DNA from: Psilocybe cubensis
Taxonomy: Eukaryota
Direction of reading: 5' to 3'
NCBI GenBank assembly: GCA_017499595.2
Contig: CM038998.1
Coordinates: forward strand, 806,001-870,000
DNA length: 64,000 bases
Positions 13,505 through 35,313 of this stretch are shown here, one piece after another. How positions within the stretch are numbered: the first letter of the stretch is position 1; every line of letters starts with the position of its first letter. The notes beneath the pieces are model-generated. The model was given only the letters and a program-made list of their open reading frames with translations, had not been told where the DNA came from and made no database searches. Made by a program: the position numbers and the translations under genes.

Positions 13505-14096
13505 AGATTGGGCTCATCAGGAACCAGCACCCCCTTAGGTAAGCAAAAGTTGGCTTACCTCCGAACCTTTTCAACCCTTCTGCACTCACACTATTCTACA
13601 TTTTTGAACCACAGATATGTAGGTTATGCTTCTTTGAACACATCTGTGGTTTTTTTTTTCAAAAAAATTTTGATCTCAAGAAGTTATAAAGATTTTAATT
13701 TTTTTCCTTTTTTTTTAGTCTAACACGTCAGAAATGGTGTTTTCTCGAGTTTGGGAGATTTTCGAAAATTTGACAATGTTCTTTTGGCCGCTTATATAAT
13801 GGTACACGTGACCACACGTGACAATAAGTCACGCCTAAGTAATACCTCTCAGACTCATTATGGACTTCCAGAGACTACAATTTGACCTCTGAGGTGTAAT
13901 TCTATTATTGTGGGCATAAAGGCTAGTAGTAAGGATTGTATATGCACATTTATGAATTTTTTTTTTTTAAACTTTTTGTCTGAAACCATTTTCCGTCAAC
14001 ATAACTTTTGATTTTTTTTTCGAGCTGGATTTTGGCCGCTCTTGGCGCCAAGCCCATTGATTACGTAAGGGTGCTGGTTTCTGATGAGCCCAATCT
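13505..14096. mobile_element. 592-bp MITE (TA target duplication, Tc1/mariner/pogo-type), copy 1
   Basis: 28-bp TIRs AGATTGGGCTCATCAG(G/A)AACCAGCACCC, TA on both sides (13503-04, 14097-98), no coding capacity. The same element occurs inverted at 55573-56754. Confidence 0.93.
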
Positions 14097-14164
14097 TAGT
14101 ACTATCCCATCCCATCTCCTGCGTCCCCAACAATAAACACACACATACAACTAACCACCGCATC

Positions 14165-17100
14165 ATGCCTGCCACACTCACGTCCCTCCCGCTCGAGCCG
14201 CTGCATGATATCGCATTCCACCTCGTCGCGCATACGCCCCTCGGCCCGCCCGCTGCGCTCCTCCCGCTCCTCCTCACATGCCGCCACGTACACCGCGCCC
14301 TCACAGCAGGCGGACACCCCGCGCCGTCCTATCCACCATCCTATCTCGCCAAGCAGCGCCGTGCCCAGTCCCAGTCCCAGTCCCAGTCCCAGTCCAAGGC
14401 GAAAGGGAAGGGGAAAGAACCTGCAGATACAGATGCAGACACAGATGCGGATAATAGAAAAAGGTTTCCCCCGCCACTGACGATAGCACCCACACTCTCC
14501 CCTGCGCTCCTCGCACGCGTGTTTAGACTCAAGTTCGATGTGGGCGCGGTGCGCAGACGGCTGTTCGTCCCCCGCGCGGCGGATATGGCGGAGCAGCTCG
14601 TCGTCGCGTGTCGCGTGCTCCGGTTCTTGCGCCGCTTTCGTGCGCGGCTTGTTAGGTCCATGTCTAGCGATTACAATAATATCTACAACGATAACGATAA
14701 CGTGGAGGAGGATGAGGAAGAGGAGGAGGAGGATGAAGATGATATTGGGATGGAAGACCATCTATACACGATGCTCTTCATGATGCTCGACAACGACGGC
14801 AAAAACTACGCGCAGCTCGTACATGCAGGTATACACCCCTTCCTCACGTACTACCTCAAACACCACATCTGGCCTCCCACCCCCTCCTCTGCTTCCCCAT
14901 CAACCCACCTCAACATCCCCCTCCCCCTCCCCCTCCCTCATCCCGACGCCCCTCCCACCACGACCATCCGCATCCCCCTCCCCCTGCAAACCAACGACGG
15001 CTGGCCGCCCGACACACCCGCCACCCGCGCCGCGCTCTGGCTCCTCTGGCTCACCGCCGACCGCGCGCACCTCCTCGCCGAGCCGGTGTGGGAGAGGGAG
15101 GATGTGGTGCTGGCCGTGCTCCCGTTTGCGGTGCTGCCGCAGAGGTATGCGGCGGGGTGGGCGCCGCCGAATCATTTTGAGGTGCCTGTTAAGGTTGGGA
15201 GGGAAGGAGGGTTGGGGAGGGAAGGGAGGAGGGAAGGTGGTGGAAATGGACAAGAGAGACAAGGCAGGAGAGGCCATCAACTCCCAATCACAATCCCGCT
15301 CCCCGGCTCATCCTCCGCGTCGTACCCTCTCTACCCCTCCTTCTCCTCTTCCTCTCCCTCTCCCTCTCCCTCTCTCTCGACGGAAACACAAACACAGACA
15401 CAAACGCATACAACCGAACAACCACTCACACAATCCCACGCATACTTCTCCACAACACTAAACAGCACGATTCCACCCGCGTCTATACCCGCCAAACTCC
15501 TCCTTGTGGCCAGGAGGGAGCTGAGGGATATGATGGTGCCCCCGCATTTGCCTCTTGGGCCGCCGCCAGGTGGTCTTCCTCCTGCTGGTAATCCTGGTGG
15601 TGGTGGTGCCGGTGCTGGTGCCGCGGGTGCTGGTGCTGGCGGTGCGGGTGGTGGCGGAGGAGCGGGTAATGTGGGTGGTGGGGGAGGAGGAGGGGGTAAC
15701 CCAGGAGCAGGCGGGCTGACACAAGCAGACTACCACGTCCTCAACCGCGCTAAAGCCGCCATGCTCCCCCGCGGCGCATGTTGGGATTGGGAGGAGGGGG
15801 TTGCGAGGGAGGTTAATTCTAGGCTTGGGGGTGGTGGGTCGGCTGCTGGAGGAGGAGGAGCGGGTGGAGGAGGAGGAGGCGCGGGTGGTGGTGGTGGTGG
15901 TGGTGCGAGTGCGAGTGGTGCGAATGTAGGAGGAGGCGGTGGAGGAGAGACACAGCCGCCACAAACAAAACCTCCAAAACCAAAAAAGATCAAAGCAGGC
16001 GACGAAGAGAGTAAAAAATGGGACGAGACGTTTTGGAGGATGCGGTTGTGCGGGCGGTGGGTCGATGTCGACGCTGCTCTCGGCGGCGATGTCGCTGGTG
16101 GCGTTGACGCTCTCGGCGGCGGGGACGTCGTCGGCGCTCTCGGGGAAGAGGGTAGGGAGGCAAAGGGAGGAGAGGGGTATGGAAGAGAGGGAAGGGAAGC
16201 AAAAGGGGGAGAAGGAGAATGGATAGGAGAGGACGAGCTGATGTTCAGACCTGGCGAGGTGTACGTTCCGGGGTCGATGCATGGGATATGGCAGGGCAAG
16301 ATTTATGTGCGTGTGTTTCGTTTTTTTTCTTTGCTTTTTTCTTTGCTTTTTTCTTTTTTTTTTGTTGGTTTTTTCATTGGTTTTTTTTGGTTGGTTTGTC
16401 GGGTTGGTTGCATGTGTTGGCTTTTTTGGTTGGTTTTTTTGTTGGTTTTTTAGTTGGTTTTTTTTTCGTTGGTAGCATGCGTTGTTTTATCGCGTTCTCG
16501 CGTCCTCTCGTTGGTCGCGCGTTTCTCGCGTGCGTTGGTTTCTCGTGTTGGTTTTTCTTTTTTTTGCTTTTCGTTGGTTTATCGCGTGCGTTCTTTGCTT
16601 TTCGCCTTCGTTTCTCGCGTTCTTTCGCGCCTTTCTCGCGTTCGCGCGTGCGTTCTCGCGCGCGTTGGTTTTTCGCCTTGGTTTTTCGCGTGCATTGGTT
16701 TCTCGCGTGCGTTCTCTCGTTGGTTGCTCGCGCGTTTATCGCGTGCGTTCTCGCGTTCTCTCGCACCTTTCTCGCGCGCGCGCGCGCAAGCGTTCTCTTG
16801 CACCTTGCGCATGCGTTTTCGCATTCTCGCATTCTCTTGCACCTTGCGCGTGCGTTCTCGCGTTCAACGCTTATTCATTTGTTTTATTTCATTTCTCCTT
16901 ACCTTTACCTTTATCCTCAAACTCCCCTCCCCTCCCCTTCACCTCCCCTCCAACCTCTCTAACCCAAAACCAACCAAAACCAAAACTAACCTCCCTCCCT
17001 CCCTCCCACCCTCTCTCTACAGATCCCACAAGGCCCGCAATTCAACCACGTCCTGCAGAACCCGCAGTATCCGTCGCTTATCTGTCCAGAGGCGGTTGCG

Positions 17101-20100
17101 CAGGTGCAGGTGCAGGCGCGGGCGATTTTGTTGGCGCAGGCGCAGGCTCAGGTGCAGGTGGAACAACAGGTTCAGGCGCAGGGAGAACAACAGGCTCAGG
17201 CGCTGGGAGAACAACAGGTTCAGGCTCAAGTACAACAACAACCTCAGGCGCATGCTCAAGCAGAACAACAGGCGCAGGCTCAGGCTCAGGATCCGCACCA
17301 ACTCGCTCCTCACCAACCCCCACAACAACCTCCACAACACCAAACACTCACCCTCACCCTCCCAGGCGGCGGCACGAACCCGCGCCTCTTCTCCGAGTCG
17401 TCGCTTCAACTCGTGATGCAGCCCGTGTGTTTGGAGATTGCGGAGCATCATCGGGTGTGTCTTGGAAGTTGCTGCGTTTCTGTGGGTTCTTCTTTGTCTG
17501 CGTCGTCTTTGTTGGGTGATGGGTCTGGTGCTGCGGCGAACGCGTCGGCGTCTGGTTCTGCGGCGAACGCGCCGGCGTCTGCTGCGTCTGGTTCGTCTAC
17601 GAACGAGAAAGAGAAAAAGAGAAAAGACAGCCTCTCACCCCTCTCCGAAGCAAAAGCGGAAAGAGGATGCGGCGTGCTCCCGCTCCCGCCGCTTGTGGAG
17701 GGGAGGCTGCCGCTTGGAGCGAGGGTTTATGTTGCGGGTTCTGTTGCTCCTTCTACTGCTTCGAATACAGAGGCGAGTTCGGGGTCGGGGTCTACGGCGT
17801 CTGGGTCTACGGCGTCGAGTTCGGGGACGGCGGAGGAGGAGGAGGAGTCGGGGTCGGGGTCTACGGCGTCGAGTTCGGGGTCAGAGTCTGCTGCGTCGGA
17901 GGAGGAGGAGGAGGAGGAAGACGAGGAAGACGAGGACGAGGACGAAGAAGAGGAGGAGGAGGAAGATGAAGAGGACGACGACGACGAGGATGAAGAAGAT
18001 GAGGACGAAGAAAACTCTCAAGAAAGCATCGAAGAACCCGCACAGGCTCAAGCGCCCCCAACACAACTTGAGAACGCAAACGCAAACGCAAACTCAGGAG
18101 AAGGAACAGGAACAGCAATGGTGCAGGCGGAAGGGAGCGGCGAACCGCACGAGGCGGCTGTTGAGGCGGGCGCGACTGCTGTGCCTGTGCCGCTGCCTCC
18201 GGATCTTGGGGGTGCGGGTGCGGGTGCTGGGGGTGGTGCGGGTGCTGGTGGTGCTGGTGCGGGTGCGGGTGCTGGTGCTCCTCATAACCAGAACCAGAAC
18301 GCAGGGCAAGGGCAAGGTCAAGCACCTAACCAAGGACAAGCAGCCAACCAAGGACAAGCACCCCACGATGAAGCCAACCAAGAACCCAACCAAGCACCCA
18401 ACCAACAACAACAACCCGCACCCCTCCCACCCCTGGCACTCCTAGACTACAGCATGCGCAACGCGTGGTTCGACGGTGAGCCAGGCGGCGTGGCTGTCGT
18501 TCCGCGGCGCCAGATCGTCAGATCCGGTTCCGGTTCCATTGGAAGTGACGGAGAGGGGACGGGGACAAGGATGAGGAGGGAAGAGGTGGTTGTGAGCACG
18601 GGATTCGTGAGACCTGATTTGAACGTGCCGAGCGGGTGCGTTGGTCAAGGGAGAGCAGCAGGAGCGGGAGGGGGAGGGGGAGAGGAGAGGAAGACGTACG
18701 TGTATGAGACGTATGATCCTGAGCGTGTATCGTCGCATGATGCGCATCTCGTCTTTGCGCCTTCTTCTTCTTCTTCAAACGCCAACGCGAATGGTACAGA
18801 CGCGAACGCGAACGCGAATGGGATGATGAACCCGGAGTGTGTGACGTGCGCTGCGCTCGCGAGAGCGCGTAGGGAGGAGCGCGCGCGGGAGGAGGAGGAG
18901 GCGAGGAGGATGTTGGATCGGGCTATGCGTCGCGTTGGGCGTGGGGGTGGGGGTGGGCTTGACCTTGAGCTTGGGCTTGGACGTGGTCTTGGGGATGGGA
19001 AGATGGATGTTGACGAAGATGACGAGGAGGAAGGGGGAGAGATGGGGATGGAGATGGAGGATATCGATATGGCGGATTTTGCGCGTGGATTCGAGGCGGC
19101 TGTCGGTGGTTCCACCCGCGCCTCCTCTTCCTCCTCCTCCTCCTCCTCCGAAGACGACGAAGACGATGCCAACTCAGACGAAGACGAAGACGAAGACGAA
19201 GACCTGAATGCAAACCTCAACATAGGTACCGATATGGACCTCGATCCAACACACCTCGCCGCATTCGCGTCGCATGTGTGTATACCGGGCCGTGTTCACC
19301 GTGTACGCGTGCGCCGCGTCGATGAGGATTTGTATTACCACCACCACCACGATGATGATGGGGAAAGAAGGAGGGAAAGGAAGAGGATGGTGTTGGGTGA
19401 TGATGTGCCGCGCGGTGAGAGTGGATATGTCGCTTTTCTGTGTTTGGGCGGTGGGTCTGCCGTGGATGAGGAGGAGGAGGAGGAGGAGGAGGAGGAGGAG
19501 GACGGAGAGGACGGAAGTAGCTCTGAAGAAGAGGAGCGTGGAGATGCTGGGAGGGAGAGGAAGCGGAAGAGGGCGGGTGTGGATGTGGATGAGCATATGT
19601 CGGGATATGTTAGTGGTCGTGGGCGTGGGCGTCGAGATGGACCGAAGCGCGCGCGGAGGAGTGAGAGCGCAAGTACCAGCACTACTACCACCACCACCAC
19701 TTCACCAACACACAACCGGCTACACAAAATCCACCCACACCCCCACCGCATCCACATCATCCCGCCCACCCGCCGCGAATTCGAGCGCGCGCGCATCGGG
19801 GCGGCGTGTACAGGCATCCGCGATACCATCGTCACAGGCGGGGTGCCGGGGTCATCTTCCTTCCCCGCCTACTCCTCTTCATCTTCATCTCACTTGTCGC
19901 CGTCGGAACGGCGCCGGCTGCGCCAGCGCAGCTTGGTGATGTCCGCGCTGTACCAGGATGTTGTGGTGTATGGCCGTGTGAGGCGGTGGGATGGGCTTGT
20001 GGGGATGCTTAGGATCAGTCGGTCCGCGCACCAGCAGGCACAGGCACAGGCGCAGCAGGGTGCAACGACAACGCCGAGTGCGAATTATCTGTTTGTGTTT

Positions 20101-20238
20101 GGGTATGTGGTTGGCAAGCGGAATTTTGTGGGGGAGTGGAGGATGGCGGCGGCGGATCCGTTGAGGCCTGGGTGGGGAGGCGCGTTTGTGATGAGTAAGC
20201 TTGAGGAGGATGAAGAGGGGGAGGAGGAGGGGGTGTGA
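14165..20238 (+). CDS. Giant low-complexity protein (~1785 aa) with F-box-like N-terminus; 2 exons (14165-16306, 17023-20238)
   Basis: MPATLTSLPLEPLHDIAFHLV...LLPLLLTCR start. The intron GTGCGT(16307)...CTAAC...TACAG(17022) joins the 789- and 1044-aa ORFs in frame. Globular-looking C-terminus YGRVRRWDGLVGMLR...NFVGEWR...WGGAFVMSK. Confidence 0.8.
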
Positions 20239-21082: not shown

Positions 21083-24037
21083 TTATACAAAATTTTTAGA
21101 TAAAGGGTGTGCCTTCCAGGAAACCGGCCATTTCGCTTCTTCCCATTCCTTCTTTATATACTCTGGAGGCTCTCCAATGAATTGTGGGAGTATTCTGTAC
21201 GACATCGCGAACAGATCCGCCACGTAATCCCCGGACGACCAAGAATCCGGCCAGACCCCAAGACGCAGATGAACGTCGTTTCTCAACTGCCAGAGCACAT
21301 CAAATGTTTCCCAATTCTGGATCAAATGGTCTGGGAGTGAATAACGTGAATAACGGTATGTCGGGGGTTGGTATTCCTCTGCGTAGCGAAATCCTAGTTT
21401 ATTAAATGTTCTGCCATCGCATTGGTCGTGCATAGCAGAGATAGATTCCAGTGTCGGTCGGCCTGGCTGTACTGTGCAGGTTCCGTCGTCGGAATAACAG
21501 TATGGCTGCCCAAGTGGGGAAATATTCCCCGTAAACTTATTTAGGTATTTTTCTTACTGCGTGAATTTGTAAAAAATATGTTGGAGTGCGGAAACATTTT
21601 TTGAGTGCGCAGATTGTTTTCTAGCTTAGCCGTAAATATATTTGATTGCGCGGAAACATATTTGACTGCGCGGAAACATATTTTGGACATATTTTGCTAG
21701 CGCACGTAAATTTCTACTGCCCTCAATTACATTTAATGCATAAATACTGTGCGCGTAGATACATTTTGTGCCGCAAACAAATCTTTCGATGCGCGGAAAA
21801 CAATGTTCAATTGCACTATTTCTAGCCTAAAGTGACCAGCCGTTATGCCGAGATTATGTAAAATGATCAAAAATGGCACCTCGGCAAACGCAAATTAGTT
21901 CAAGCTCCGATTGTTCTCTACAAAATAAATAGCTATTCTCTATTCATTACCACTTTATAGAGAAGTTTAACAGCTTCTTTAATAGTATATATGTGTTAAA
22001 TACACACTACAGGTCACTTTGAGGACTCCCCATCAATAGTACAGCCTGTACGCCATTTAAGACAGCTCTGGCACTATGTGAAAACCACCGTGGGAAAGAC
22101 ATCAATCAGTACATCTGTGTGTGTGGTATGTGCATTGGCGCATCTGTAGAGTCAGGCATGGTTAAATACGATTAAAAAATAAATAAAGACGTTTATTCAA
22201 CAATAATTAATGGGTACTAAGATATTGAGCACAGCTGCGATGTAGAAAGTGAAATATTAGCAATGACAAATGTGAAAGAGGATTAGTGACTGGTGCAAGC
22301 AAAGCGAAATTGAACAGTCGGAGATTGAACTCATTTACGTCTGCCGAAGTGCCATTTTGGATCATTTTACATAATCACGGCAACCGCGGCTGGCCACTTT
22401 GTCAAGAAATGGTCATTTCGAATAATGTTTTCCGCGCATTGAAAAGTTTGTTCAGCGCACAAGATATATTTACGTGCATGTAATTTACACGTTGAATATA
22501 TTTTGGAGCAGAAACAATGCACTCGCACTTGCAAATTATGTCTGAAAATATGTTTTCGCGCAGCCAATTGTGTTCACGGAATCATCAAACTGGCCCAGAA
22601 AGCAATCTGCGCACCAAACAAATGTTTCCGCGCACAAATTTTTTTTTATTCTTGATGCACTTTTCAAAAATAAGGAAATTATATTTACGGGGAATATTTC
22701 CCCACTTGGGCAGCCATATAACAGTGTCTCAATTTTAGTCGAGGGAGAAGCTCTAAAGGAAGCGGCATTGCGCCTGATGCTACAAAGATATGCTTCAGGT
22801 TTGGAAACAACACATCGTCTTCAGATGAAAGGTCGTGGAACTGATCGTCTAAGCAGAACGCCTCCAACAGGTCTTCCAAATGTGCCATCTGTCCCCAAGC
22901 GCTATCAGAATCGGTCGGTTTGAGGTGAAAAAAAAAGGATGTGACCGAGGTAAGAGATTCTGCAAGAAGGACAAGGTCATCAACCGAGATACATCCGTAG
23001 TTGAGAGAAAGTTCCGTGATGGTGCAACGGGAACGGTCAACCAAGTCCAAAAAATCTTCTGCTGGAAAAGGAGGAGCGTGCTGGACACCGAAAATAGTCA
23101 GATTTGGGAGTATGAGGTTCCTGAGAAAGGCAGAAACAATCGGGGTGTTTGCGGCGCTACTATCAGGATCTTCACTATAGGCGTCTATATAGAGGTTTTG
23201 TAGGTTTGCACAGCGCAAGGATGTGGTTCCTGCCAAGGTTCCGTTGGGAATCTCTTGAACAACGTCGTTGGAGTAAATGAAAAGGCGGAGTTTAACAAGC
23301 CTAGGAGCCAGGGTAAGTACCTTAAAGGTATCATTGAGAGATAAGTAACTCGAAACAAATTCAGTAAGATTGCTCCAGTCTATGGAAAAGCGGTCCAGTT
23401 TAAATAGTTCAAGGGTCAGGGAGAGTGGTGCTGCATTCCCAAAATTGATGACAGCCAATGGGTCGGAGAGGTCTTCTAAGATGCAGTATATCCCCAACTC
23501 CCTCAAGAGACATGGTGAATCAAAGGGGCGCTCCGCAGAGATACGTGCAAGCATGGAGGTGCTCAGCCCCGATAGAATGAGTTTCTGGCAACGATGAAGG
23601 ACCTCACAGATGGCATCTGCAAGAGGGGCGAAAATCTGAAGATCCTGCTGCAACTCGGGTTCCAATGGCCCAGGTTCCAATGGCCCAAAAATATTGATTG
23701 AAAGAGGACGATTTCCGGAGCGGCCAAGCCACTCAATTGCAAGCTGTACCATTTGCGCTGCCGTTGTGGAGCGCGGTTTTATTTTGAACAGAGGATTATT
23801 CCACAGGTGAGGAGATTCCCAGGCAATTTTGCGCCATCGTTGACATACAGCACCTAGAGGAAGAACGTCCTCGGGGGGGACACCAACACCCCGAGTGGCA
23901 TTGACGGACAAGTCGATATAAAACTGAAATATATACGCAAGGATTTCTACGGGCATTCGATCGGTCACATTCCTGACAGTGAGGGTTTGTTGGTTGAGCT
24001 GAGGCAAGGGTATCTCCTGGGGCAGTGGAGTTGACAT
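21083..24037 (-). pseudogene. F-box/LRR-like gene interrupted by a DNA transposon
   Basis: F-box motif DRMPVEILAYIF...LGAVCQRWRKIAWESPHLW. Removing 21502-22717 plus one TSD restores ...KLRHCYSDDGTCTVQPGRPTLESISAMHDQ..., in frame with ORF 21083-21433. Confidence 0.85.
21502..22717. mobile_element. Non-autonomous DNA transposon with ~410-bp imperfect TIRs
   Basis: Perfect outer TIR ATGGCTGCCCAAGTGGGGAAATATTCCCCGTAAA; inverted similarity extends to ~21916/~22310. TSD ATAACAGT at 21494-21501 and 22718-22725 (or 6-bp TAACAG with 1-bp wider ends). Confidence 0.9.
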
Positions 24038-24228
24038 AGGTAGGGGAAATCTCTTTGACGTTGGAAGTTGGATGTTGGATGTGAACGTGCGTGTGAACCT
24101 TTGCCCTTTTATTCCTTTCATCCTTTCATGGTCACTTTCACGAATCACTTTCAATCTCCGTTCAAACTCCGAGACCCTTGCTGGAAATGGGTTTATTAGG
24201 GTATCAGACTCTGACTGGGCTAAAAGGT

Positions 24229-24430
24229 GTACCACCACCATCACCCCATGACCAACACCTGCACTGGCAACACTACCCAATTACACACACCCCATTCACA
24301 TCGTACATCTGTACCCCCCTTTACTGTATACGCACACGCAACATATGCACACAACCTCGACTAGAACTACCCTCAACTCCGAGTCGATGCATCCCAAAAG
24401 TGTACTTGGGTAGTAACACACCACACCACA
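24229..24430 (+). repeat. Diverged direct copy of 20495-20790 (3' region of the giant gene)
   Basis: Collinear anchors: TACATCT(A/G)TACCCCC, CTCGACTAGAAC (20687/24356), CGATGCATCCCAAAA..TGTACTTG (20742/24385). Confidence 0.75.
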
Positions 24431-26186
24431 CATTGCTCATTGTTCATAAAGGTAATCTATGGACGAAGTAGCGTATTCCTCATGGCTCGTGATGATTGTT
24501 AATAACGAAGATCTCATTGTCATGTGTTGCCATCGATAAGGGTCACGCTTTCGTACATTAAGCGCCCGTGGGTTGATTTGTATAAGAGACATTCCACTTC
24601 CTGAGATGCAGCTCGGTGACTTCTGAATCCTTAGTGCAATACTAATTTATCATGATTGAAGTCTTGTTCCTCCGCTTCCAAAGTTTATCAGCGAGACGCA
24701 TACAAGTAAAAAAGTTTGATCTGTCCAAGTTATCCGAGGACCCGGAACATCCCTTGGAATGGGAGACGATTGCAAAACTCTTACACATTCGTGACACCAG
24801 CTCTACCAACATCTTGCAGTCAATTTTCTCAAAACAATCCTCCTTTCATCCGGCATGCGACAGGTCCCATTGGTATAAATGCGTTGATTTGAGTTATCCT
24901 TATGGACATGGTGCTGTGGTTCACTTTCCGATGGAAGAATCTAAAGCAAGGGAATCTGTCAATAAGTCTTTTAAATTTTAAAGTAGATCAGTATAAGTTG
25001 TATCCAAGATGGTTTTCAAGCTGTTCCAAAAGCATTGTCCAATTCAGTGCGCATATTATTGTAATTGATCCGGTGCCCCAGTCAATGAAGGCCACAAATT
25101 AAGCGCCCATACAAAGTTTAGACCATTCTACCCACTAAAATGCAATGCTAAAGTAAGTATATTGGCCCTTGGAGGAGCCCTTAGCCCTATAAACTTTATG
25201 TACCCCCCCTTCGCTAATCTTCATGAAGCCTCTGCGAATTATGACACTACATATACAGTCATCACAAGCGGAAGCATTCTAAAATTAGATTCAACGCGGA
25301 ATTTATTGTTAATCATGCTTGGGTTACGGGTCTTATAATACATAATTGAGAAGAACTGGATGTTTGCATGGTATCTCTCAGAAGTTCCTTATCAACTCTT
25401 TTCCTGGCCTAATGGAATAATAGCAGTTCGGGAACAGTATAGATTGTATAGCTTTACTCGGTCCCCATGTCAGCAGGTCACTTTCTTCCTTGCTACTCAA
25501 TTGTTACTCTCAGATTTTACCCAATTTGCTGAAGAAGCTAAGCTAATTGAGCAGCAATATGTGTTTGAAGGGGATTATATTGTGCCTGGTTTGTAAGCCC
25601 TGGGTATATAAAGCCCTTGTTGTAGCTTGGATTACTCCTTGCTAACTCCCCACTTTTTTCAGGCTCGATAAAGATATTTCCCTACGCCATTCTCCCCAAT
25701 ACCCACAGTTTTTACGGAAATTAACAAATGCTCTACTACTGCAACAGGTGCAATCATCACTTTACACCAAGGAACGAGATGCACAATCACATCCCCACAA
25801 ACCCTCAACCCAATCACTGCACGATATGCGACACCGATGTTGAAGATACAACAATCCACATTAAAGCCCATCATGCAACCTGCGCGATCTGCGATATAAT
25901 TTACAAGGACAATCATGGCTTTTTTTTTTTTTTTTTTTTTTATTTTGTGTTATAGCCTCTGAGGGGTGGACCCCTCCCTTGGCTTTGTGCTACGTACTCT
26001 ACCTACTGCACCCCTTTGGTGCTGGGCTTTCCTCAGTTCATCTCTGCGCCATGGGGGGCCCTCACGTCCCCCCACCTGGCCCAACCTTTCCTAGGTTGTT
26101 TGAGATGACACTTCCAGCCTCGTTTCGGCTTCTCTCTACGGTGTTTTCTCCTTTTACTGACTCGTTTGTGGGTGGTGTTATGTTGT

Positions 26187-29100
26187 CTATCCATCGTCCT
26201 CCTCCTCCTCTATTCCCCTCCTGATTAAGTTTTCCTTGTACGGTCGTATTCGTTTCGTCTTCGCAATATATTTGAGTAACGCTTTGACGTTGTCACTTTT
26301 TGTCGTGAGCTCTTCTAAGTTGGTGCATTTCTTTCCGATCTCATTCCACATGTCTTGTCTAAGGTGCTTGTATCTTCTACATTCGAACAGGTAGTGTTCC
26401 ACAGTCTCGGTCGCTCTCTGGTCTCCTCGTCTTTCTGCACAACACGGGCAGTGTTTATCTTGCTTGCCGTTGATTTTGCTGAGGTGAGCGTTCAGCGGAA
26501 TGTGTCCTGATCGTATTTGAATGATGACGCTGGCCTGGGTCCGGTTGAGCCTCTTCAAGGCTTTCCTGAACCTGTTGAAAGGGAATTCAGTGTCAATCGT
26601 TTCGAATTTTACACGTCTCTTCGATTCATTCCAGCGATTTCGCCATATCGTCATCAATTCTTCGTGGTACGCCTGTTTCTCCGCTGAGGCGCTCTTCTTC
26701 AGTTCATTTTTCAGCGCTTCTGGTAATTCATCGTGTGGAGAGTTGTCTCCTTCCGCCGCGCGCTTCGCTTCTTCATCAGCCCTTTCATTGCCTAAGACAT
26801 CGGAGTGCCCGGATATCCAGTGCAGTGTAATGTCTCCCTGTAGGTGCCGAAATGCTGCGTCAATCTGCCTCATAATGTGCTGACCAGACTTAGCTTTGGG
26901 CCATTCTAGGTTCCTTAGGAGCGACTGGTTGTCGCTGAATACGTCGATCTTGTACCCATTAGTTGGCTCTTCGTTGGCAATGAGTTTGGAGGCCAGGAGG
27001 CCTCCGACTGCTTCCGCTTCGTATGTGTTGTGTTTGTCCTTTGTTCCCAGGTGCTTACGCAGGACTTTGCTATGCCGGTCTTGTCTGGTCCTGAGCAGGA
27101 TCGCTGCTGCTCCGGTGCCTAGTCCGTGGCTGGATCCGTCGGTGTACACTCTGAGGTCCGCTTTGCTTTTCTTTTCGTATTTCATTGACTCTTCTCGGGT
27201 TTGGGCAATGACAATCTTGAAAGGCGGGCGGTAGCTTGATGGGTGCAGTGAGGGCTCAATCGTTTCTATTGTACTCGGCTTCAATTCAAATATTCGTATG
27301 AGGTTGTCAATTGGGGTCTTGTGTCTTCTCGCTGGTTGTGCTTCAGCCCTCGAAATCACTCGGTGCAGGGGGTGTGTGGGTGGCAGGGTTGCCATACGTA
27401 CCATTGCTCTGTGACAGGCTTTTAGCAATGCTAGCTCCAGGGGAAGGACGCCCGCATGGGCGTCCAGCAACTCAGTGGGCGTTGACCTCATGGCACCCGT
27501 GATTGTTAGTGTTGCCCTTTTTTGTATGGACATCATCCTTTTAAGCGCTGCTACCGATCCTACATTGTTGCGGCGGCCTATTGGTTTTGTTGGTGGGGTA
27601 TACCACACGTCAATCCCATAGGTGAGTCATGGTAGGACTGTTGTGATGTACAGCTGACGGAGTAAGTAGGGGTGGATCCCTGTTGTTGGTTTTGCGAGGC
27701 GTCGAAAGTTTGCTACGCAAGCTGCGGCCCTTTCTGTGGCGTATTGTAGGTGTGTTTTCCATCGCAATTGACAGTCTAGGCGGAAGCCTAGACATTTGAA
27801 GTCGCGGACCTGTGGTACTAGTTCGCCGTTAACTTCTAGTCGTGGGTGATCGAGGAAGTCGGGATTCCTTGGGTCGAGGTGCATTACTGCTTGTTTGGCC
27901 GGGGCAAAACTGGAATTGTGGCTGTTGCTCCATGTGAGAGCTCCATCCTCTTTGTTGTAGTAGGATACTTAGCTTGTCAGTTGTCTCATCCGTGTCTTTC
28001 CCAATGGCCATTAGAGTAACATCGTCTACGTATCCGATAGCGTCCTCCCCTTCATTGTGGTTGACTATTTCGAGTAGTTCGGCATTGTAGATGATGTACA
28101 ATATCATGGACAGGGGGTCGCCCTGTCCAATTCCATTGTCAATCTTCATAAGTGCTGAGACGAAGTCGTCGAACTTGAGTCTTGTTTTTCTATCCTTCAG
28201 TAGCTCTCGAATGAATTCTACGTAGACGCGTGGTATTCTTCTCTTCTTGAGGTTGTGTAAAAGCCGATCCGTTACCGCGTTGGGGAAGGCGCCTTCGACG
28301 TCGAGGAAGAGGAGGGATGCCACCTTACCTTTCCTCCACGCTGCTTTAACTTTATTGACCATGTAGTGCATCGCGTCTGAGGTTGTTCGGCCAGGTCGGC
28401 CTCCAAAGTGCGTGTTGGGGAGGAGTTGGTGTGCTTCCACTAAGTGGCTGATCCTCTCGGCAACTATGGCTGTCAGTACCTTCGGCATAGTGTTGAGTAG
28501 GGCGATCGGGCGGTATGCTTTTGCTGACTTGTAGTTGGGCTTGCCGGGTTTTTTCAGTACGACCGTGATAGAGTGTTTCCACTCCTCTGGGTAGTGGCCT
28601 GTCTTCAGGATTGCGTTGTAGATTGAATGCAGCCGGTTCGTTATCAGCGGTGCCGTCTTTTGCAAAACAACGTTGGGGATCTCGTCGATGCCGCAGGCTT
28701 TGTAGGGTGTAAGCCGACTTATTTGGCGCAGAATTTGCTTGCGCGTTATGTGACCGCTATCCGAGATTGCTTCCGGGTAGGTGAAGTTCTGTGGGACAGA
28801 AGAAGAGTCTGGTTTTTTTGGGAAGAATGAGTGAGCAAAAATCTTAGCTTTTTCCTCATTTTCGGTTACGTCCTCTTGCTCATCGTACTCGTTTGTGACT
28901 GTTAGTGATGGGATTCTGGGTCTACCTCCATCGCCTACAGGGTTTTTGAAGTACCGGTTCGCCATCCAGATGTCTGCGCCCTCCGCGTCGAGTAACCATT
29001 CACTCCAATGATTGCGTTTTGTGTCCACCACGAGCCTAGCAAAGGCTCGCTTTGCTGCCTTGAATTCGTTATGACATGGGTGCCAGGGCTGCGTTCGGAA

Positions 29101-30144
29101 TTTGTTATGGAGGCTGCTCATCTTGTTTTTGTACCTCTTTGCTTCCTCGACTTCGCTCGTCCACCATCGCTTTGATTCCGGTAATGGTTTTCGCAGCTTG
29201 ATCACTTCTTTTATTGTGTCTTGGATTGCATGTGTCAGAGCGGCCACTTCTTTGTCAATCTTCTCCGCCGTGAAGAGTGTGATTGGTGTGGTGTCGTCCC
29301 CCAGTTTCGTCTCCAGTGTCTTGTTGAATTTGGTCCAGTTGGCAGTGCGAAAGTTTTTCTCGAGTACATCGTTAGCCTTCTTGTGGCTAGCGTCGATTTC
29401 CGTGATTATTGGATAGTGATCAGTGTTTGCCGGTCGGTTGTCGTAGTCGACGTCGCATCTTGTCACGTATTTGGCGAGAGTCTCTGAAATAAACACGTTA
29501 TCAGGTCTTGACATTCTTTTTGTTACCATGTGTTCCAGGGTTGGTAGGCCTTTTGGCAGGGCCATGGTCAGCCCGTTTGCCTCGACAAGCTCGATTAGTC
29601 GCTCCGCTTCTGTTATTGCCTGTGGAGTGAATAATCTATCATCTTCGTCCCTGTCCCACATGGGGTGGTGATGGTTGAAGTCTCCAGCCCACAGTTGATG
29701 GGTGTTAGGTGAGTTCAATTCCTGATGGTGATCTTCCAGGTACTGCTGAAGTACGTTGAGTGTTACGCCGACTCGTCCTGGGTGGTACACGTTGAAGATG
29801 TACAGGGTTCCTCTGGCGCACTGGAGCTTGATTGCGGTGATGTCGTTCGATGTCGGGAATGCTACCTCGCTCCATCGACTTGTATCGAGTCTCTTGTTTA
29901 CCCAGATACCCGATCGAGTAGTTGCCGCGTTTGCTCTGCTGACTGGGTAGATTGGTCGGAAGTGGGCGCCGGTTCTAATGTTGCCGAATTTTGTTATGTA
30001 TGGTTCTTGTATGAGCACGATGTCGTATTCTTTCCCCAGTTCGCTGTTTAAGAGCTCGAGGTGAGCCACTTCCGATTTGTTTAGGTTTATCTGCAAAATA
30101 CAAATTCGGTGGAGATACTGCTCGTTTATAGGGCGGGTACTCAT
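26187..30144 (-). pseudogene. LINE ORF2 (AP endonuclease, reverse transcriptase, RNase H, CCHC), disrupted
   Basis: Motifs QINLNKS, IQEP, GDFNHHHPMW, TDHYPI; YRPIALL, QGDPLS, YVDD; YTDGS, WISGHSDVLGNERADEEAK. Frameshift near 27950-27975 and in-frame TGA at 27627-29. Confidence 0.92.
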
Positions 30145-30147
30145 CTT

Positions 30148-31776
30148 TTAGTCGTCTGTGTTTCTTGCCGTTGGCCTCTTTTCTCCTTTGTTGCTGCTCG
30201 TTTGTTGGGTGGGTTTGGGTTCCGGGCTCTGCTCGGGCGTCTGGATCGGTGTGCGTTGCACGTTCGTTGCGGGTTCAACTGTCCACCTGGGTGATTGTCC
30301 TTGCGCGAACGCTTTGTTTTTGAAGGTTGTCGGCGCTGAGTTAGTGTCTACGCTCCAGGTCCATGGTTCGTCCGTGGGGATGAAGGGGAGCCTGTTTTCT
30401 GGGGTGCGTTCATTCTTCTCAAGCACCTTCTTCAGGAATACCGGGCAGTTTCTGTCGTAACTGGGGTGGTCGTCGACGTCGCAGGATACGCAGTGTGTTG
30501 TGGTCTCTTCACAGTTTGGTGTGCAATGTCCTTTCTTTCCGCAGTGGCCGCAGATATCTTGCTTGGATGTACATTCCTTCGCGAAGTGGTTGTATCCCTG
30601 GCACTTGAGGCACCTGATGGGATCGTTTCGGCACTTCTGCACTCTTACCCATTTGTTCGCTATGTACATTCCAATTGCGATTAGTCTGTTAGCCTCGCTT
30701 GCGTCGTTTACCGTGAAGATGATGTGGGCACTCTGCTGGCCTTCGGCTCGTCTCGAAATCTTCTTCGCCCATCGCATGGCCACTATCGTTCCCTCCTCCA
30801 CTCTGTTGGTTTCCTCCACTTCCCTCAGGAAATCAGCGTCGTCTGGTTCGGCGGTGAGGGGGACCCCCATCGCTATGAGCTCGTACGTGCGTTTTTTGGT
30901 GGTGACGTCTTCACCGATTTCCTTGCAGAGGTTACGACGGTTCTCCTCCACCCTCATCCACGCCGCTCCGAAGTCTGCGTCAAACTCAATCAACAGTCCT
31001 CCGTTCCTCTGCTTGATTGCGGATCGGATCCGAACTGACCCTTCCGGCTCGAGTTTCAGCAGGATTTTGTTTATCAGGTCCTTAGCCTCCTTGTCGCCCA
31101 TCGTGCTGATTTTCGCGTCCTTGTCAATCCCTTCCAACATCGTCTGCCTTGCACGGATGCCATGACGTGCGAGTACTCTGGGGTTGGTCGCGACGTTTGA
31201 TTGGACTAGGATCTGGCTAACCGTAGATAGCCCTTTTGTGAGAGCCTGACTGTAGGACGTACCTGTGGCTGGTGCTTGATGCACCGGTTTGCTCGCGGCC
31301 GATTTGATAAGATCGGCAGTGGCCTTGTTGATTTCTTCGAGTTTTTGATCTACCTGGTCCTGCGCGTGTTGTACGAGAGCCTTTATTTCGTTCGTAAAGG
31401 TTGCAAGCTCCTCGCCGAATCCGTCGTGGTAGGTTTGGGTCGCCAATGGTATCTCCATCTCCTCGAGCATAAAAGCCAGGCCTCGCATGGCCTGTATTAC
31501 TACTGGTGGGATTTTTGCCGACATTTGCGAGATCTGAAACAGACATGCGGCGGCCCGATGTGCCGTCAGTCCCGCGCCAGCTGGCACCAGGAGCTGGTGC
31601 TCCTCGAGCATTGCTCTCCCTCCTTTCGCGTCTTGGACTTGCTGGAGTTCCTCGTTGATTACGGTGCCTTTACTTCTCGAGCTTCGGTCGGCGCTGGGAG
31701 GGTCGCTTTGACTCGGGGTAGCCGTGTTTCCCATGCCCGTCTTTTTGACACGCGCGGTGCCGGAATTGACGTTCAT
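30148..31776 (-). CDS. LINE ORF1, gag-like nucleic-acid-binding protein
   Basis: 542 aa; three zinc knuckles CLKCQGYNHFAKEC, CGHCGKKGHCTPNC, CVSCDVDDHPSYDRNC. Confidence 0.92.
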   Translation of the reverse strand: MNVNSGTARVKKTGMGNTATPSQSDPPSADRSSRSKGTVINEELQQVQDAKGGRAMLEEHQLLVPAGAGLTAHRAAACLFQISQMSAKIPPVVIQAMRGLAFMLEEMEIPLATQTYHDGFGEELATFTNEIKALVQHAQDQVDQKLEEINKATADLIKSAASKPVHQAPATGTSYSQALTKGLSTVSQILVQSNVATNPRVLARHGIRARQTMLEGIDKDAKISTMGDKEAKDLINKILLKLEPEGSVRIRSAIKQRNGGLLIEFDADFGAAWMRVEENRRNLCKEIGEDVTTKKRTYELIAMGVPLTAEPDDADFLREVEETNRVEEGTIVAMRWAKKISRRAEGQQSAHIIFTVNDASEANRLIAIGMYIANKWVRVQKCRNDPIRCLKCQGYNHFAKECTSKQDICGHCGKKGHCTPNCEETTTHCVSCDVDDHPSYDRNCPVFLKKVLEKNERTPENRLPFIPTDEPWTWSVDTNSAPTTFKNKAFAQGQSPRWTVEPATNVQRTPIQTPEQSPEPKPTQQTSSNKGEKRPTARNTDD

Positions 31777-32729
31777 ATGATAGTTTTAATGTGCGTGGGT
31801 GTTTTTGGGTTTGAGATAGCAGTGGGGGGTATTTTAGGTACGTTTTTGTGTGTTTTTTTTACTCTACTCGACTGCTAATACGCCTGGCAGACCAGTCCCT
31901 TGCGCTCTAGGTGCGTGGGAAATGTGCTGGAGGTGGTAGTTGCGGATCAAGGAGCCAAGCAATCATGGCTTACACGAGCACTACAGTCTATCTCAACGAC
32001 ACCGCGGCACTTATTGCGGTGGATGTAAAAGGCTGTTCAATTCGGCGAGTAATTTTGATTCACATATTCGATCATCTACTCATACACCTAAGTATGTGTT
32101 GTGTCCTGCCAAGTGCGGACGCGGGTTTGTATCGCACTCGGCGCTCGTCCTCCACTTTGAAAATGGTAAATGCCGTCCGGAGGTAGGTACTATCGACATT
32201 CGGAGAATCGACAATTTTATGCGGAGGAACAACACGCACCACATGATGACCGACCTGGCTACGATCCCCGACGCACCTACCGGCAATGAAAATTTGGTCC
32301 CTTTGGGACATTTCATTGTCCAAAGGCATGGGAGCAGGTATGCGTACCAATGCACCGTGTGCAGGAAACGCTTCAGAGTTTTGGCTTCGTTAAACCAACA
32401 CCTTCACGGAGCACGGCATGGCAAAGAGAAAATATACATATGCCGAGGATACCGTTGTGATATACAGTTTGCCACGCTCGGCGGACTCGCACAGCATGTA
32501 GAAAGTGGAAAGTGAAACGCATCTCAAGCTTCGGATGTACTTGAGGTATTGGATAGGTTGCTGAAGGAGATGGTACAGGAACTTATATGAGATGCAGCCT
32601 TTGGAGGAGTTCACTCCTGTCAGTGGTATTTATTTACCACTGGCATACCAAAAGCAATGCTGAGATATAGATATCTTAAGAAGACACCATGCTGATTAAT
32701 CAACAATAACAACCATAAAATATGAATGC

Positions 32730-32943
32730 TAGAGGTGCTCACGGGTAGTACTATATGAAATTAATAGGAGGAACCAAGAGGGAAGAGATAGCAGATTTGA
32801 AAGAGCCAGAGGTGTCATCCTAAACAGTCTCGGATAGGCTGGGCTTTGAAGGGGGACGTGAGGGCCCTCTGTAGCGCAAGGACGAGCCGATGAAGGTACA
32901 ATCACGCTCATAGGGAGCGAGTAGATAAACAAAAAAAAAAAAA
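32730..32943 (+). mobile_element. 5'-truncated 3' end of a second, diverged LINE (5' limit approximate)
   Basis: Ends in A13 (32931-43); 32812-32895 aligns with the 3' UTR of the full LINE. No TSD found. Confidence 0.7.
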
Positions 32944-33394: not shown

Positions 33395-35313
33395 ATGACT
33401 TCCACTCGCCATATATACGACTCCAAGGCTGAATCCAGCTCCAAGTACGAAGAGGGGGATGCGACAGGGAATGGTGTTTCCAAGACTTCCCGTCGCGTGC
33501 GCAGGTTGTACCAGATTCACGTTGGGCAGCTGTTCGACTCAGTGGGACGCGTCTTGGTGAAGGATCAAGTCGTGACTGTTGATAGAGACAGGGGCATCAT
33601 CATAGACGTCTCTGACGAGCAGTTGAAGGACTGGGAATGGGTTGTTGGGAAGGAGGAGGTCAACGTTTCAGTGGAGCGGATCGACTTGGAGGGCTTGGTG
33701 TTGCTCCCAGGGTTCGTGGATGTCCATGTTCATCGTGAGTACATTCCCTGCGAAACCTCATTATGATTAAAGTTTTTTTGAGTGTTGACAATGTGCTGAT
33801 TTTGTCTTAATTGAATCAAGTCTTTCTTCATCCATATTCGGAGACTTCATGGGATGACCAGGTCACCAAAGAGAGTCTCTCTGAGCGCACTGTGCGTGCG
33901 ACTGTTCACGCTCGAAGGACGCTTCTGGCTGGATACACCACAGTTCGGTGAATTTACTTCCTCTTCGATTCCTTCGATGATGCAATAAATTTACATATTT
34001 AATCTATTTTCTGGGTGTTAGGGATCTCGGCACTGAAGGCGCTCTTGATGCAGATATTGGGCTACGGAAATGTTTGGCTGGGCAGCACCCCATGATACCT
34101 GGACCGCGATACTACTGCGCAACGCGAGCCATTGTCACTACAGGGTCGTATGGTGAGTGACCCATACTTGGCAAATATCCTTCAATCTGATATTCTCTGA
34201 TGTTAAGGCCCTAAGAACACCTTGACACCTTCTCAACAAGGTGTAGACGGCATGCGAGGAGCAGAACCTGCGGACGGTGTTGCCCAATGCATACAAGAAG
34301 TGCGCAAACAAATAGGCGCTGGTGCTGATTGGATCAAGGTAAATTAAGTCTGTATAGGGGTGGAGCCGTCTATTCTGAACTGTACATAGATATACGCTGA
34401 TTACCGGCCCAGAAGTCTCACTGCACCGGTCTCCTTTTCAACCGCGACGCGTTCCATTGCGACGTTCCACGAGGATGAAATGAAAGCCATGATTAACACG
34501 GCGCATGCATTGGGAGTCAAGGTCGCCGCCCACGCGAGTACTTTCGGTGCAATCAAAAATGCAGTTGCCCTAGGTGTCAATAGTATTGAGCATGGTGGTC
34601 AAATCTGCCTGGGTGAAGAAGAGGACGAAGAGGAACTGGAGAATGGCACTGGCGTAACCGAGCTTCTCGAAGAGCTCGTAAAACCAGGAGGAAATACGTT
34701 CTTCGTCCCAACGGTTGCCGTGTACTACACCATCCAGCAAAGCGGGACTGTGTATGGCAACCAGCAATGGGAAATGGCGAAAAGAACCTTTGAGGCGGCC
34801 CTCAGTGTTGACTCGTCACAATTTGACACATCCAACGCCACTTATTTGGATGGCGAAAAACCCGATTTGAACATCGCATGTGGTGGAGACACAGCTGTGT
34901 TTCCTCATGGCCAAAATGCACTAGAAATGTCACTGATGCGTAAATTGGGGGCAAGTTGGGAGAGGGTTCTTGGATGGGGGACGTACAGTGGCTGGAAATG
35001 CGTTCGCGGAATGGAGTGGGAGGGTGTCAAAGGAAAGAAGAAACTTGAGCGCCTTCAAGCTCGAGAAAAGAATAGGAAATTCAATCTGAGTGGTGGCGAC
35101 GAGAAAGGTGGAGGTAAAGAAGACTTAGATTTGGATCGTGGAGTGCCATTTGGCGCTATTCGAGTCGGCTGGGCTGCAGATCTCATTGGAATACAGGGGA
35201 AACTCGATGGAACACCTGAAGATTTTGAGGAAGCTGTCATGCGAGGCGTTCAATTTGTGATGAAAGGGGGCGTTATATACAAGAAAGATGGGAAGGAGGT
35301 TCTTCAAATCTGA
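33395..35313 (+). CDS. Metal-dependent amidohydrolase (Xaa-Pro dipeptidase/M38-like), multi-exon
   Basis: LLPGFVDVHVH metal motif, LLAGYTTVRDLG, GADWIK, KVAAHA, SIEHG, ACGGD, GAIRVGWAADL, FVMKGG; four GT-AG introns. Confidence 0.9.

Follow-up and report, generated by a model that had tools for sequence, protein, structure and literature searches.

A three-way junction RNA with covarying stems in the 3′ UTR of one mushroom-type fungal LINE lineage

Structured 3′ UTRs are already known from LINEs. UnaL2 of the eel and ZfL2 of the zebrafish are LINEs of the stringent type with stem-loops in their 3′ tails, and R2 is a site-specific retrotransposon with a single ORF and a restriction-like endonuclease. 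According to the accessible part of one account, the tail stem-loops of stringent-type LINEs are recognized by their own ORF2p (PMC4176376), and in the available portions of two others, the 3′ UTR RNA of R2 is bound by the R2 protein when target-primed reverse transcription (TPRT) is initiated (PMC10499050, PMC11194090). For L1, stem-loops near the 3′ end have been proposed (excerpts of PMC5135761 and PMC6510757). Among viruses, three-way junctions in the 3′ UTRs of flaviviruses stall Xrn1, as stated in partially available sources. A literature search whose range left most subscription journals outside gave no account of any such structure in the 3′ UTR of a fungal LINE; the structured LINE 3′ handles met in the same search are those of animal elements only (R2 and stringent-type LINEs of fish). 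Here, we describe a three-armed-junction RNA of roughly 70–90 bases with many compensating base changes, located in the tail region of one mushroom-type fungal LINE lineage. It is a new RNA family, of the kind already known as structured LINE 3′ UTRs.

Like the stringent-type LINEs, this lineage has a structured, lineage-specific RNA in the 3′ UTR, whose structure is kept while the stems drift and is retained by 5′-truncated copies. Unlike those LINEs, with their single terminal stem-loop and short tail repeats, it carries a three-way junction 87–102 nt before a true poly(A), and two hairpins follow. Covarying structure in the 3′ UTR, as in the stringent type, is found here, but a position of that structure at the very 3′ end is not: the junction does not stand directly before the tail, and the terminal position is taken by a hairpin, H5. 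Furthermore, stringent-type LINEs have partner SINEs whereas no partner SINE of the junction was found in the window or in the homologous loci, where all covariance-model matches at E ≤ 0.64 lie in LINE 3′ UTRs except for the second window copy, and binding by ORF2p is putative. The multi-helix folded 3′ UTR of the R2 element is similar in outline and is the best-documented precedent for the handle mechanism proposed below. The LINE here is unlike R2 in having an APE endonuclease, RNase H, a CCHC ORF1 and poly(A), and the Rfam model of R2 gave no match in four stretches scanned at E ≤ 10 or in 12 loci at gathering score. Like this LINE, L1 ends in poly(A) and has a structure proposed close to its 3′ end, but it is regarded as relaxed and poly(A)-reliant, and its simple hairpins are backed by statistics, whereas the present element is a covarying multi-helix junction. 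The flaviviral Xrn1-resistant RNA (xrRNA) is likewise a compact three-way junction of ~70–90 nt in a 3′ UTR with further hairpins after it; the present element differs in having no Rfam sequence or model match and a retrotransposon as the host, and neither the pseudoknot nor the ring topology was found in it.

Two copies of the junction are present in the window, i.e., the whole 64-kb stretch of DNA analyzed: copy 1 at 26038–26108 on the minus strand and copy 2 at 32815–32885 on the plus strand, and the coordinates, strands and letters given for them in the earlier note are all correct. In copy 1, P1 (UCAUCUC/GAGAUGA) is formed between 26102–26108 and 26038–26044, J1/2 (AAA) lies at 26099–26101, P2 (CAACCU/AGGUUG) is formed between 26093–26098 and 26082–26087, and a single G after P2 is at 26081. 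P3 of this copy (26077–26080 plus 26068–26074 with 26052–26058 plus 26048–26051) reads GCCA..UGGGGGG ACGUGAGGG CCCCCCA UGGC, then GCA; its 9-nt loop is at 26059–26067 and J3/1 (GCA) at 26045–26047. The corresponding parts of copy 2 are P1 at 32815–32821 with 32879–32885, AAA at 32822–32824, P2 at 32825–32830 with 32836–32841, P3 at 32843–32846 plus 32849–32855 with 32865–32871 plus 32872–32875, the loop at 32856–32864, and GCA at 32876–32878. In the sense transcript, P1 closes the junction, AAA leads into P2, one or two G into the long G-rich P3, and GCA back to P1.

For both copies, the minimum free energy (MFE) fold is the proposed structure, which is thermodynamically unusual in copy 1 (z −3.69) but not in copy 2 (z +0.40). 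In the two copies together, 45 of the 48 cells of the 24-pair structure are standard pairs. The compensatory or wobble stem changes that had been described are borne out by the count, with five of the 24 pairs changed on both sides, two changed by wobble, and three mismatched in copy 2. No difference is seen between the copies in J1/2 AAA, in the G that follows P2, in the 9-nt loop of P3 or in J3/1 GCA, so that the loop and junction bases are invariant as had been noticed. The flanks diverge, again as had been noticed: the two regions do not match each other by blastn at word size 7, and a wider alignment of them shows patchy identity only. In slid controls of the two copies, 33–56% of cells are paired with 0–1 double changes; among 500 shuffles, 13 do as well as the real sequences. 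A 16-nt core around the loop occurs exactly twice in the window; when up to three mismatches are permitted, the expected number of matches is 0.30, and two or more are obtained in 3 of 100 shuffles. By themselves, the two window copies make a case that is suggestive; it becomes strong with the 12 further homologues described below.

Copy 1 belongs to the 3′ UTR of LINE1, a full-length LINE (25920–31959, minus strand) delineated by Pfam matches, ORFs and CCHC motifs. From 5′ to 3′ on the sense strand, LINE1 has ORF1 (30148–31776, minus strand; 545 aa with three CCHC knuckles), ORF2 (26187–30144, minus strand; APE, RT and RNase H domains, with one frameshift near 27950), a 3′ UTR (25942–26186, minus strand) and a poly(A) of 22 A (25920–25941, minus strand), and it is flanked by a 10-bp target-site duplication, CAATCATGGC, at its 3′ end (25910–25919) and again at its 5′ end (31960–31969). 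The Pfam matches of ORF2 are Exo_endo_phos_2 (4.7e-13), RVT_1 (3e-19) and RNase_H (4.1e-10); in ORF1, three CX2CX4HX4-6C motifs are found at residues 392–447, with a sub-threshold zf-CCHC match (E 0.02). Features of the class that are present here are the APE, RT and RNase H domains of ORF2, a gag-like ORF1 bearing CCHC motifs, poly(A) and a target-site duplication. Judged from these features, LINE1 is an APE-RT-RNaseH non-LTR retrotransposon, putatively of the Tad1/Inkcap/Deceiver/I-like group, Tad1, Inkcap and Deceiver being named fungal clades in the accessible part of PMC4427930. The nearest named homologues of ORF2 are from Agaricus bisporus and Coprinellus (44–48% identity), and the majority of the homologues are metagenome proteins. 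By the names on these distant homologues, the hosts of the lineage appear to be Agaricomycete fungi. The lineage also appears abundant in soil and mushroom-associated metagenomes.

LINE1 splits a C2H2 zinc-finger gene, the start of which is near 25729 and the stop at 32515. The 5′ edge of the repeat is seen at 31955, where many reads diverge, and other LINE copies of related genomes lack one base at 27956; no empty-site joint for LINE1 was reported from the raw reads of related genomes. The raw reads are ~2–8 times deeper in the 3′-UTR bin than in the LINE body, as expected for a LINE tail, and in related genomes they contain more junction copies with other P1 and P2 sequences. In one read set, from a run guessed to be RNA, a single contig joins 18 nt of the P3 region to a piece of ORF2; it is evidence neither way.

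Copy 2 begins 300 nt past the stop codon of the zinc-finger gene. Its recognizable similarity to LINE1 starts a few bases before P1, and the fragment is closed by an A13 tail (32931–32943, plus strand), 41 nt past the end of the covariance-model match. Since no ORF2 remnant is found upstream by blastx or blastn, it is a tail fragment of a related element rather than a recognizable LINE; no target duplication was found for it, and its 5′ edge is undefined. The earlier note had placed the two copies in “two diverged LINEs”: the claim is right for copy 1, which lies in the tail region of the full-length LINE1, and does not hold for copy 2, which has no LINE coding remnant.

For homologues of the host element, metagenome contigs were scanned with the ORF2 alignment, and 71 LINE loci were obtained from the best 80 of 564 confirmed tblastn matches, a sampling that favors close relatives of the query protein. 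A covariance model made from the two window copies alone (model R1) was run on these 71 loci and the window, and gave eight additional matches at E ≤ 0.025, each of them lying past the end of ORF2 and on its sense strand. Of its weaker matches, that in L010 later proved real and a minus-strand match in L005 proved not real. The second-round model (model R2) gave 14 matches at E ≤ 3.3e-7, i.e., the two window copies (copy 1, 71.7 bits and E 2.7e-17; copy 2, 63.6 bits) and 12 of the 71 loci (L004, L005, L007, L010, L011, L012, L018, L023, L026, L028, L034, and L036); its only other match, at E 7.1, is spurious. All of the 12 locus matches are on the ORF2 sense strand. The junction starts 137–349 nt past the ORF2 stop in these loci and 74 nt past it in the window LINE, while the distance from the junction end to poly(A) (at least nine A) is confined to 87–102 nt in the 10 of 12 loci whose contigs reach the tail, and is 92 nt in window copy 1. 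The variable distance past the stop codon, together with loop-length changes that are not multiples of three, indicates that the junction is not coding. The unpaired bases of the junction are conserved in elements with ORF2 segments ~46–61% identical to the query protein P0004. None of the 71 loci has the exact 9-nt loop motif on its sense strand, because the 9-nt loop of the two window copies stands in place of an apical P3 helix carried by most relatives; the window copies have a shortened, lineage-specific apical P3. Elsewhere, viral contigs gave RNase H look-alikes only (seven loci) and no LINE. Two LINE contigs are binned in metagenome-assembled genomes (MAGs) among the prokaryote genome contigs; a 3′ flank is present in only one of them, L079, and it contains no junction.

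Covariation was assessed in two alignments. A7, the covariance-model alignment of the 14 sequences (24 pairs, 332 cells), is fitted to the model. Its cells are paired in 89.8% of the 332 cases compared with 41–48% in slid controls, double changes occur at 18 of the 24 pairs compared with 5–11 and in 83 cells compared with 9–16, and the covariation score is 0.724 compared with 0.10–0.18; none of 500 shuffles reaches the observed percentage paired, the double-change cells or the score. All seven P1 pairs show double changes. Because A7 leans toward the model, the complete tails were also aligned by MAFFT alone (A8, 12 complete tails), and the structure was derived from A8 itself. RNAalifold on A8 recovers the junction, with P1 lengthened to 11 bp, P2 and P3 as before and the terminal stem-loop H5 in addition, and 27 of 37 pairs are compensatory; the paired cells amount to 90.4% compared with 38–48% in slid controls, and each of the 11 P1 pairs has changed on both sides. 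Because close relatives are among the sequences (L011, L012, and L036; L018 and L026), there are fewer independent events than the cell counts suggest, and about 8–9 distinct P1 helices are counted by eye. Furthermore, 44 of the 332 cells of A7 are G-U and only six are A-C; by this excess of G-U over A-C, with pairing of 89.8% on the sense and 78.3% on the antisense strand, the structure belongs to the sense strand, that is, to the LINE RNA.

Folds of single sequences are less uniform. The same junction is in the MFE folds of L012 (z −3.3), L026 (z −1.7) and L005 (z −1.8), and only P3 is kept in that of L023; over the sequences folded, the z-scores are mixed (−3.7, −3.3, and −3.8 in three, −1.7, −1.8, and +0.4 in three others). 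The fold of copy 2, no stabler than shuffled sequence, would suit an explanation without any selected structure, in which the similarity is inherited and the pairing is a by-product of GC-rich palindromes or of an alignment fitted to the model, as A7 is with its related sequences. Such an explanation is extremely improbable: the structure-blind alignment leads to the same fold, pairing is near 90% compared with 38–48% in slid controls, all seven (A7) or 11 (A8) P1 pairs have changed on both sides, and the stems differ almost wholly between subgroups while the junction bases stay fixed. The junction is almost certainly a selected RNA structure. The check by a larger alignment that had been set beforehand came out for covariation (A7, 89.8%; A8, 90.4% paired), and with the 12 further loci, the proposal of a conserved, covarying RNA on the sense strand of LINE 3′ UTRs is supported.

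The invariant or nearly invariant parts of the family are J1/2 AAA, the first C-G pair of P2, the G or GG after P2, the top of P3 (GGGGA, then GCGAG) with two G-C pairs in P3, and J3/1 GCA, which is GCU and GCG once each. Most relatives have an extra apical helix on P3; both window copies have the 9-nt loop instead. Downstream of the junction, a second conserved module, the hairpin H4, has a C-G closing pair and the loop consensus A-N-N-(N)-G-G, and its counterpart is visible in all of the homologues displayed with stems such as GGC/GCC, ACC/GGU, CUC/GAG and AGC/GCU. H4 of copy 1 (26008–26022, minus strand) has a 5-bp stem and the loop AAAGG, and was not predicted by RNAfold; that of copy 2 (32905–32919, plus strand), with a 5-bp stem and the loop AUAGG, is in the MFE fold. 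The terminal module is the bipartite stem-loop H5, which in copy 1 (25954–25984, minus strand; columns 165–195 and helices 5–6 of RNAalifold on A8) consists of an outer 4-bp stem around a GGGG-loop-CCCC hairpin just upstream of the tail, and in the family form of a bipartite stem around a GGGC-loop-GCCC hairpin. The order in the sense transcript is then junction, H4, H5, an AAUAAA-like signal and poly(A), the structured 3′ domain being ~190 nt long. Copy 2 has the junction and H4, followed by A13 where the others go on to H5, which is missing.

Searches of Rfam 15 agree with the view that no described family is involved. For both window copies at E ≤ 10, the best match is a retroviral frameshift hairpin (16.4 bits, E 1.5, against a gathering score of 34); the 12 loci give no match at gathering score, and in the 3′ UTRs of L012 and L005 nothing overlaps the junction at E ≤ 10. 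A three-way junction with conserved junction bases would be compatible with the catalytic core of a self-cleaving ribozyme that processes LINE transcripts, and ribozymes do occur in other non-LTR elements according to partially available sources. Nevertheless, hammerhead, twister, HDV-like, hatchet and pistol models have no match at E ≤ 10 in the four stretches scanned and none at gathering score in the 12 loci, and the element lies within the RNA that is retrotransposed, with ~90 nt and the tail downstream, where cleavage would part the ORFs from the priming end. A ribozyme is hardly credible here, and the self-cleavage considered in the earlier note found no support, no ribozyme model matching at E ≤ 10 on the four stretches.

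The distribution of the junction follows the phylogeny of ORF2. In a FastTree tree (LG model) of the C-terminal part of ORF2 (454 query positions), made from 41 of 72 sequences after 31 rows with coverage below 80% had been dropped, a single clade of 17 tips, with a split support of 0.998, takes in every one of the 13 LINE-borne holders. As for the four non-holders in this clade, the 3′ flank of L015 is only 176 nt; the match of L014, a locus searched for the junction by default filters only, ends at residue 1255, and its flank is unrelated; and the UTR similarity of L045 to its sisters ends after ~250 nt, before the expected junction position. L022 has a complete 3′ UTR, of which only the last ~60 nt are common with L026, and the junction is truly absent. 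The distant clades were searched with models R2 and R3, filters off, over 15 and 17 loci. The sense-strand matches outside the holder clade are marginal and limited to L033 (E 0.057 and 0.18) and L057 (E 9.5), located at the expected 99 and 90 nt from poly(A); the other 14 of the 15 loci outside the clade have no sense-strand match with the filters off. The remaining distant-clade matches are on the antisense strand and look spurious. The more distant LINE clades keep an H5-like terminal hairpin. H5 is also common to another repeat family of the same species; in 183 raw reads of that species, similarity to the LINE is limited to its last ~50 nt, with divergence at 25993. From the hairpin in distant clades and from these reads, H5 is a widely shared module and the junction a clade-specific addition.

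The junction stands at a fixed distance from the priming end and is co-inherited with one ORF2 clade. By analogy with the 3′ UTR of R2 and with the stringent-type LINEs of fish, as far as the accessible parts of the reports describe them (PMC10499050, PMC11194090, PMC4176376), a platform role in template choice can be proposed: the junction would serve as a platform to which ORF2p or ORF1p, proteins of the element itself, bind, a role that we regard as the likeliest of those considered and as moderately probable. Together with H4, H5, the AAUAAA-like signal and poly(A), it would make up a protein-binding 3′ domain, through which the element's own proteins would recognize their RNA in cis, and which would position the LINE RNA for TPRT. 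ORF2p would be the first candidate partner and ORF1p the second; recognition by ORF2p for TPRT may be the main job of the junction, a good possibility that is put forward tentatively. Counted against a platform are the absence of the junction from L022 inside the holder clade and the mixed z-scores. In addition, because the junction is not terminal and H5 is common to distant clades and another repeat family, H5 may be the true and primary RT handle, in which case the junction may serve specificity or assembly. For the RT-recognition element proposed in the earlier note, the distance of 87–102 nt to poly(A), the wider sharing of H5 and the CCHC knuckles of ORF1p, a partner as plausible as ORF2p, all have to be weighed.

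ORF1p deserves a consideration of its own. Retroviral nucleocapsid binds G-rich loops. By analogy, the three CCHC knuckles of ORF1p might bind the exposed G-rich loops of the 3′ domain, namely, the P3 apex, the H4 loop A-N-N-G-G and AUAGGG beside H5, as a packaging or chaperone site, ORF2p taking H5 and poly(A). The three CX2CX4HX4-6C motifs of ORF1, the recurrence of G-rich loop motifs in all three modules, and the fact that the widely shared terminal module is H5 and not the junction would fit such a division of labor, though the zf-CCHC match (E 0.02) is under the Pfam curated cut-off and GC-rich hairpins commonly have G-rich loops. That packaging or chaperoning is the task of the junction is unlikely.

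The fixed distance upstream of the AAUAAA-like signal and poly(A) is also what might be expected of an element acting in RNA metabolism, for stability, 3′-end processing, export or translation, or for stalling an exonuclease and thereby guarding the last ~190 nt. Such a process might yield short tail RNAs, among them the one that gave rise to copy 2: copy 2 is tail-only with similarity to LINE1 from a few bases before P1, one contig of read set X5 loses similarity at 26104 within the 5′ strand of P1, and Xrn1-stalling three-way junctions are described for flavivirus 3′ UTRs in sources available in part. Yet no Rfam xrRNA or other 3′-UTR model matches at E ≤ 10, no pseudoknot partner was identified, copy 2 has an undefined 5′ edge and no target duplication, and a single contig end is an anecdote. 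Such a role is quite unlikely. Carried further, the junction might be a mechanically or enzymatically protective module that defines a self-sufficient “tail RNA” of ~130–190 nt, retrotransposable alone, which is very unlikely. If it were so, copy 2, with junction, H4 and A13 but no ORF remnant and no H5, would be such a product, the module would seed SINE-like elements of fungi, and it would serve as a portable tag sending any RNA to the reverse transcriptase of the LINE.

Nothing is overturned by this finding, because a structured LINE 3′ UTR is an expected kind of feature. The junction is a candidate for addition to Rfam as a family of its own, and in the annotation of Agaricomycete genomes it is useful for marking the tails of 5′-truncated LINEs. 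A defined RNA domain, supported by covariation, is now available for a fungal LINE lineage, and it bears on the means by which Tad/I-type LINEs with a poly(A) tail single out their own RNA as the template. The invariant bases offer targets for mutation and a “minimal” copy exists in nature, which makes this question of template choice directly testable.

The full-length APE-RT-RNaseH LINE of the window (LINE1) is inserted in a C2H2 zinc-finger gene, whose parts are found at 25729-25919 and 31970-32515 on the forward strand and match Pfam zf-met and zf-C2H2. The insertion divides this gene in frame, and the reading frame runs on through the 10-bp target duplication; the host gene is therefore probably inactivated by LINE1. 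Elsewhere in the window lie two very long frames without stops, of 794 and 1082 aa and without any significant Pfam family (14069-16453 and 16990-20238, both forward), an F-box-like ORF (22685-24280, reverse), and a fragmentary amidohydrolase match (34390-35313, forward). The neighborhood of LINE1 has the look of ordinary fungal gene territory.

The inserted element itself also seems to be damaged. Comparison with homologues by tblastn revealed a single frame change in ORF2, from frame 2 to frame 3, at about 27946-27956 on the reverse strand, and at position 27956 five of five X11 reads and one X6 contig, from two sequencing runs matched to LINE1, have one base fewer. The copy in the window thus seems to have gained one extra nucleotide, and it is probably no longer active.

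In a more distant LINE clade with 39-42% ORF2 identity (L042, L046, L052, L059, L061, L063-L065, L067, and L069), the three-way-junction RNA of the LINE1 3′ UTR is absent from the 3′ UTRs. These harbor their own recurrent motif, CAACGAU followed by a variable hairpin and AURGGRG, about 100-130 nt before the poly(A), which may be an analogous yet different 3′ module. Among the other loci collected, two eukaryote-type LINE contigs (L079 and L080) lie inside bacterial MAGs (Bacteroidetes and Acidobacteria bins according to their titles), probably by binning contamination, and the long G runs straight after the poly(A) of L023, at about 6918-6990, are probably a sequencing or assembly artefact.

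A terminal hairpin like H5, the bipartite stem-loop just upstream of the LINE1 poly(A), is also found in the distant-clade 3′ UTRs. Furthermore, the H5 hairpin with its tail (25947-25993, reverse) is matched in the raw data of X11: in 183 reads, the match is limited to the last ~50 nt of LINE1, beyond which the same reads depart into one common different sequence with a consensus agreement of 0.85. The terminal module alone is common to LINE1 and another repeat family of the same species.
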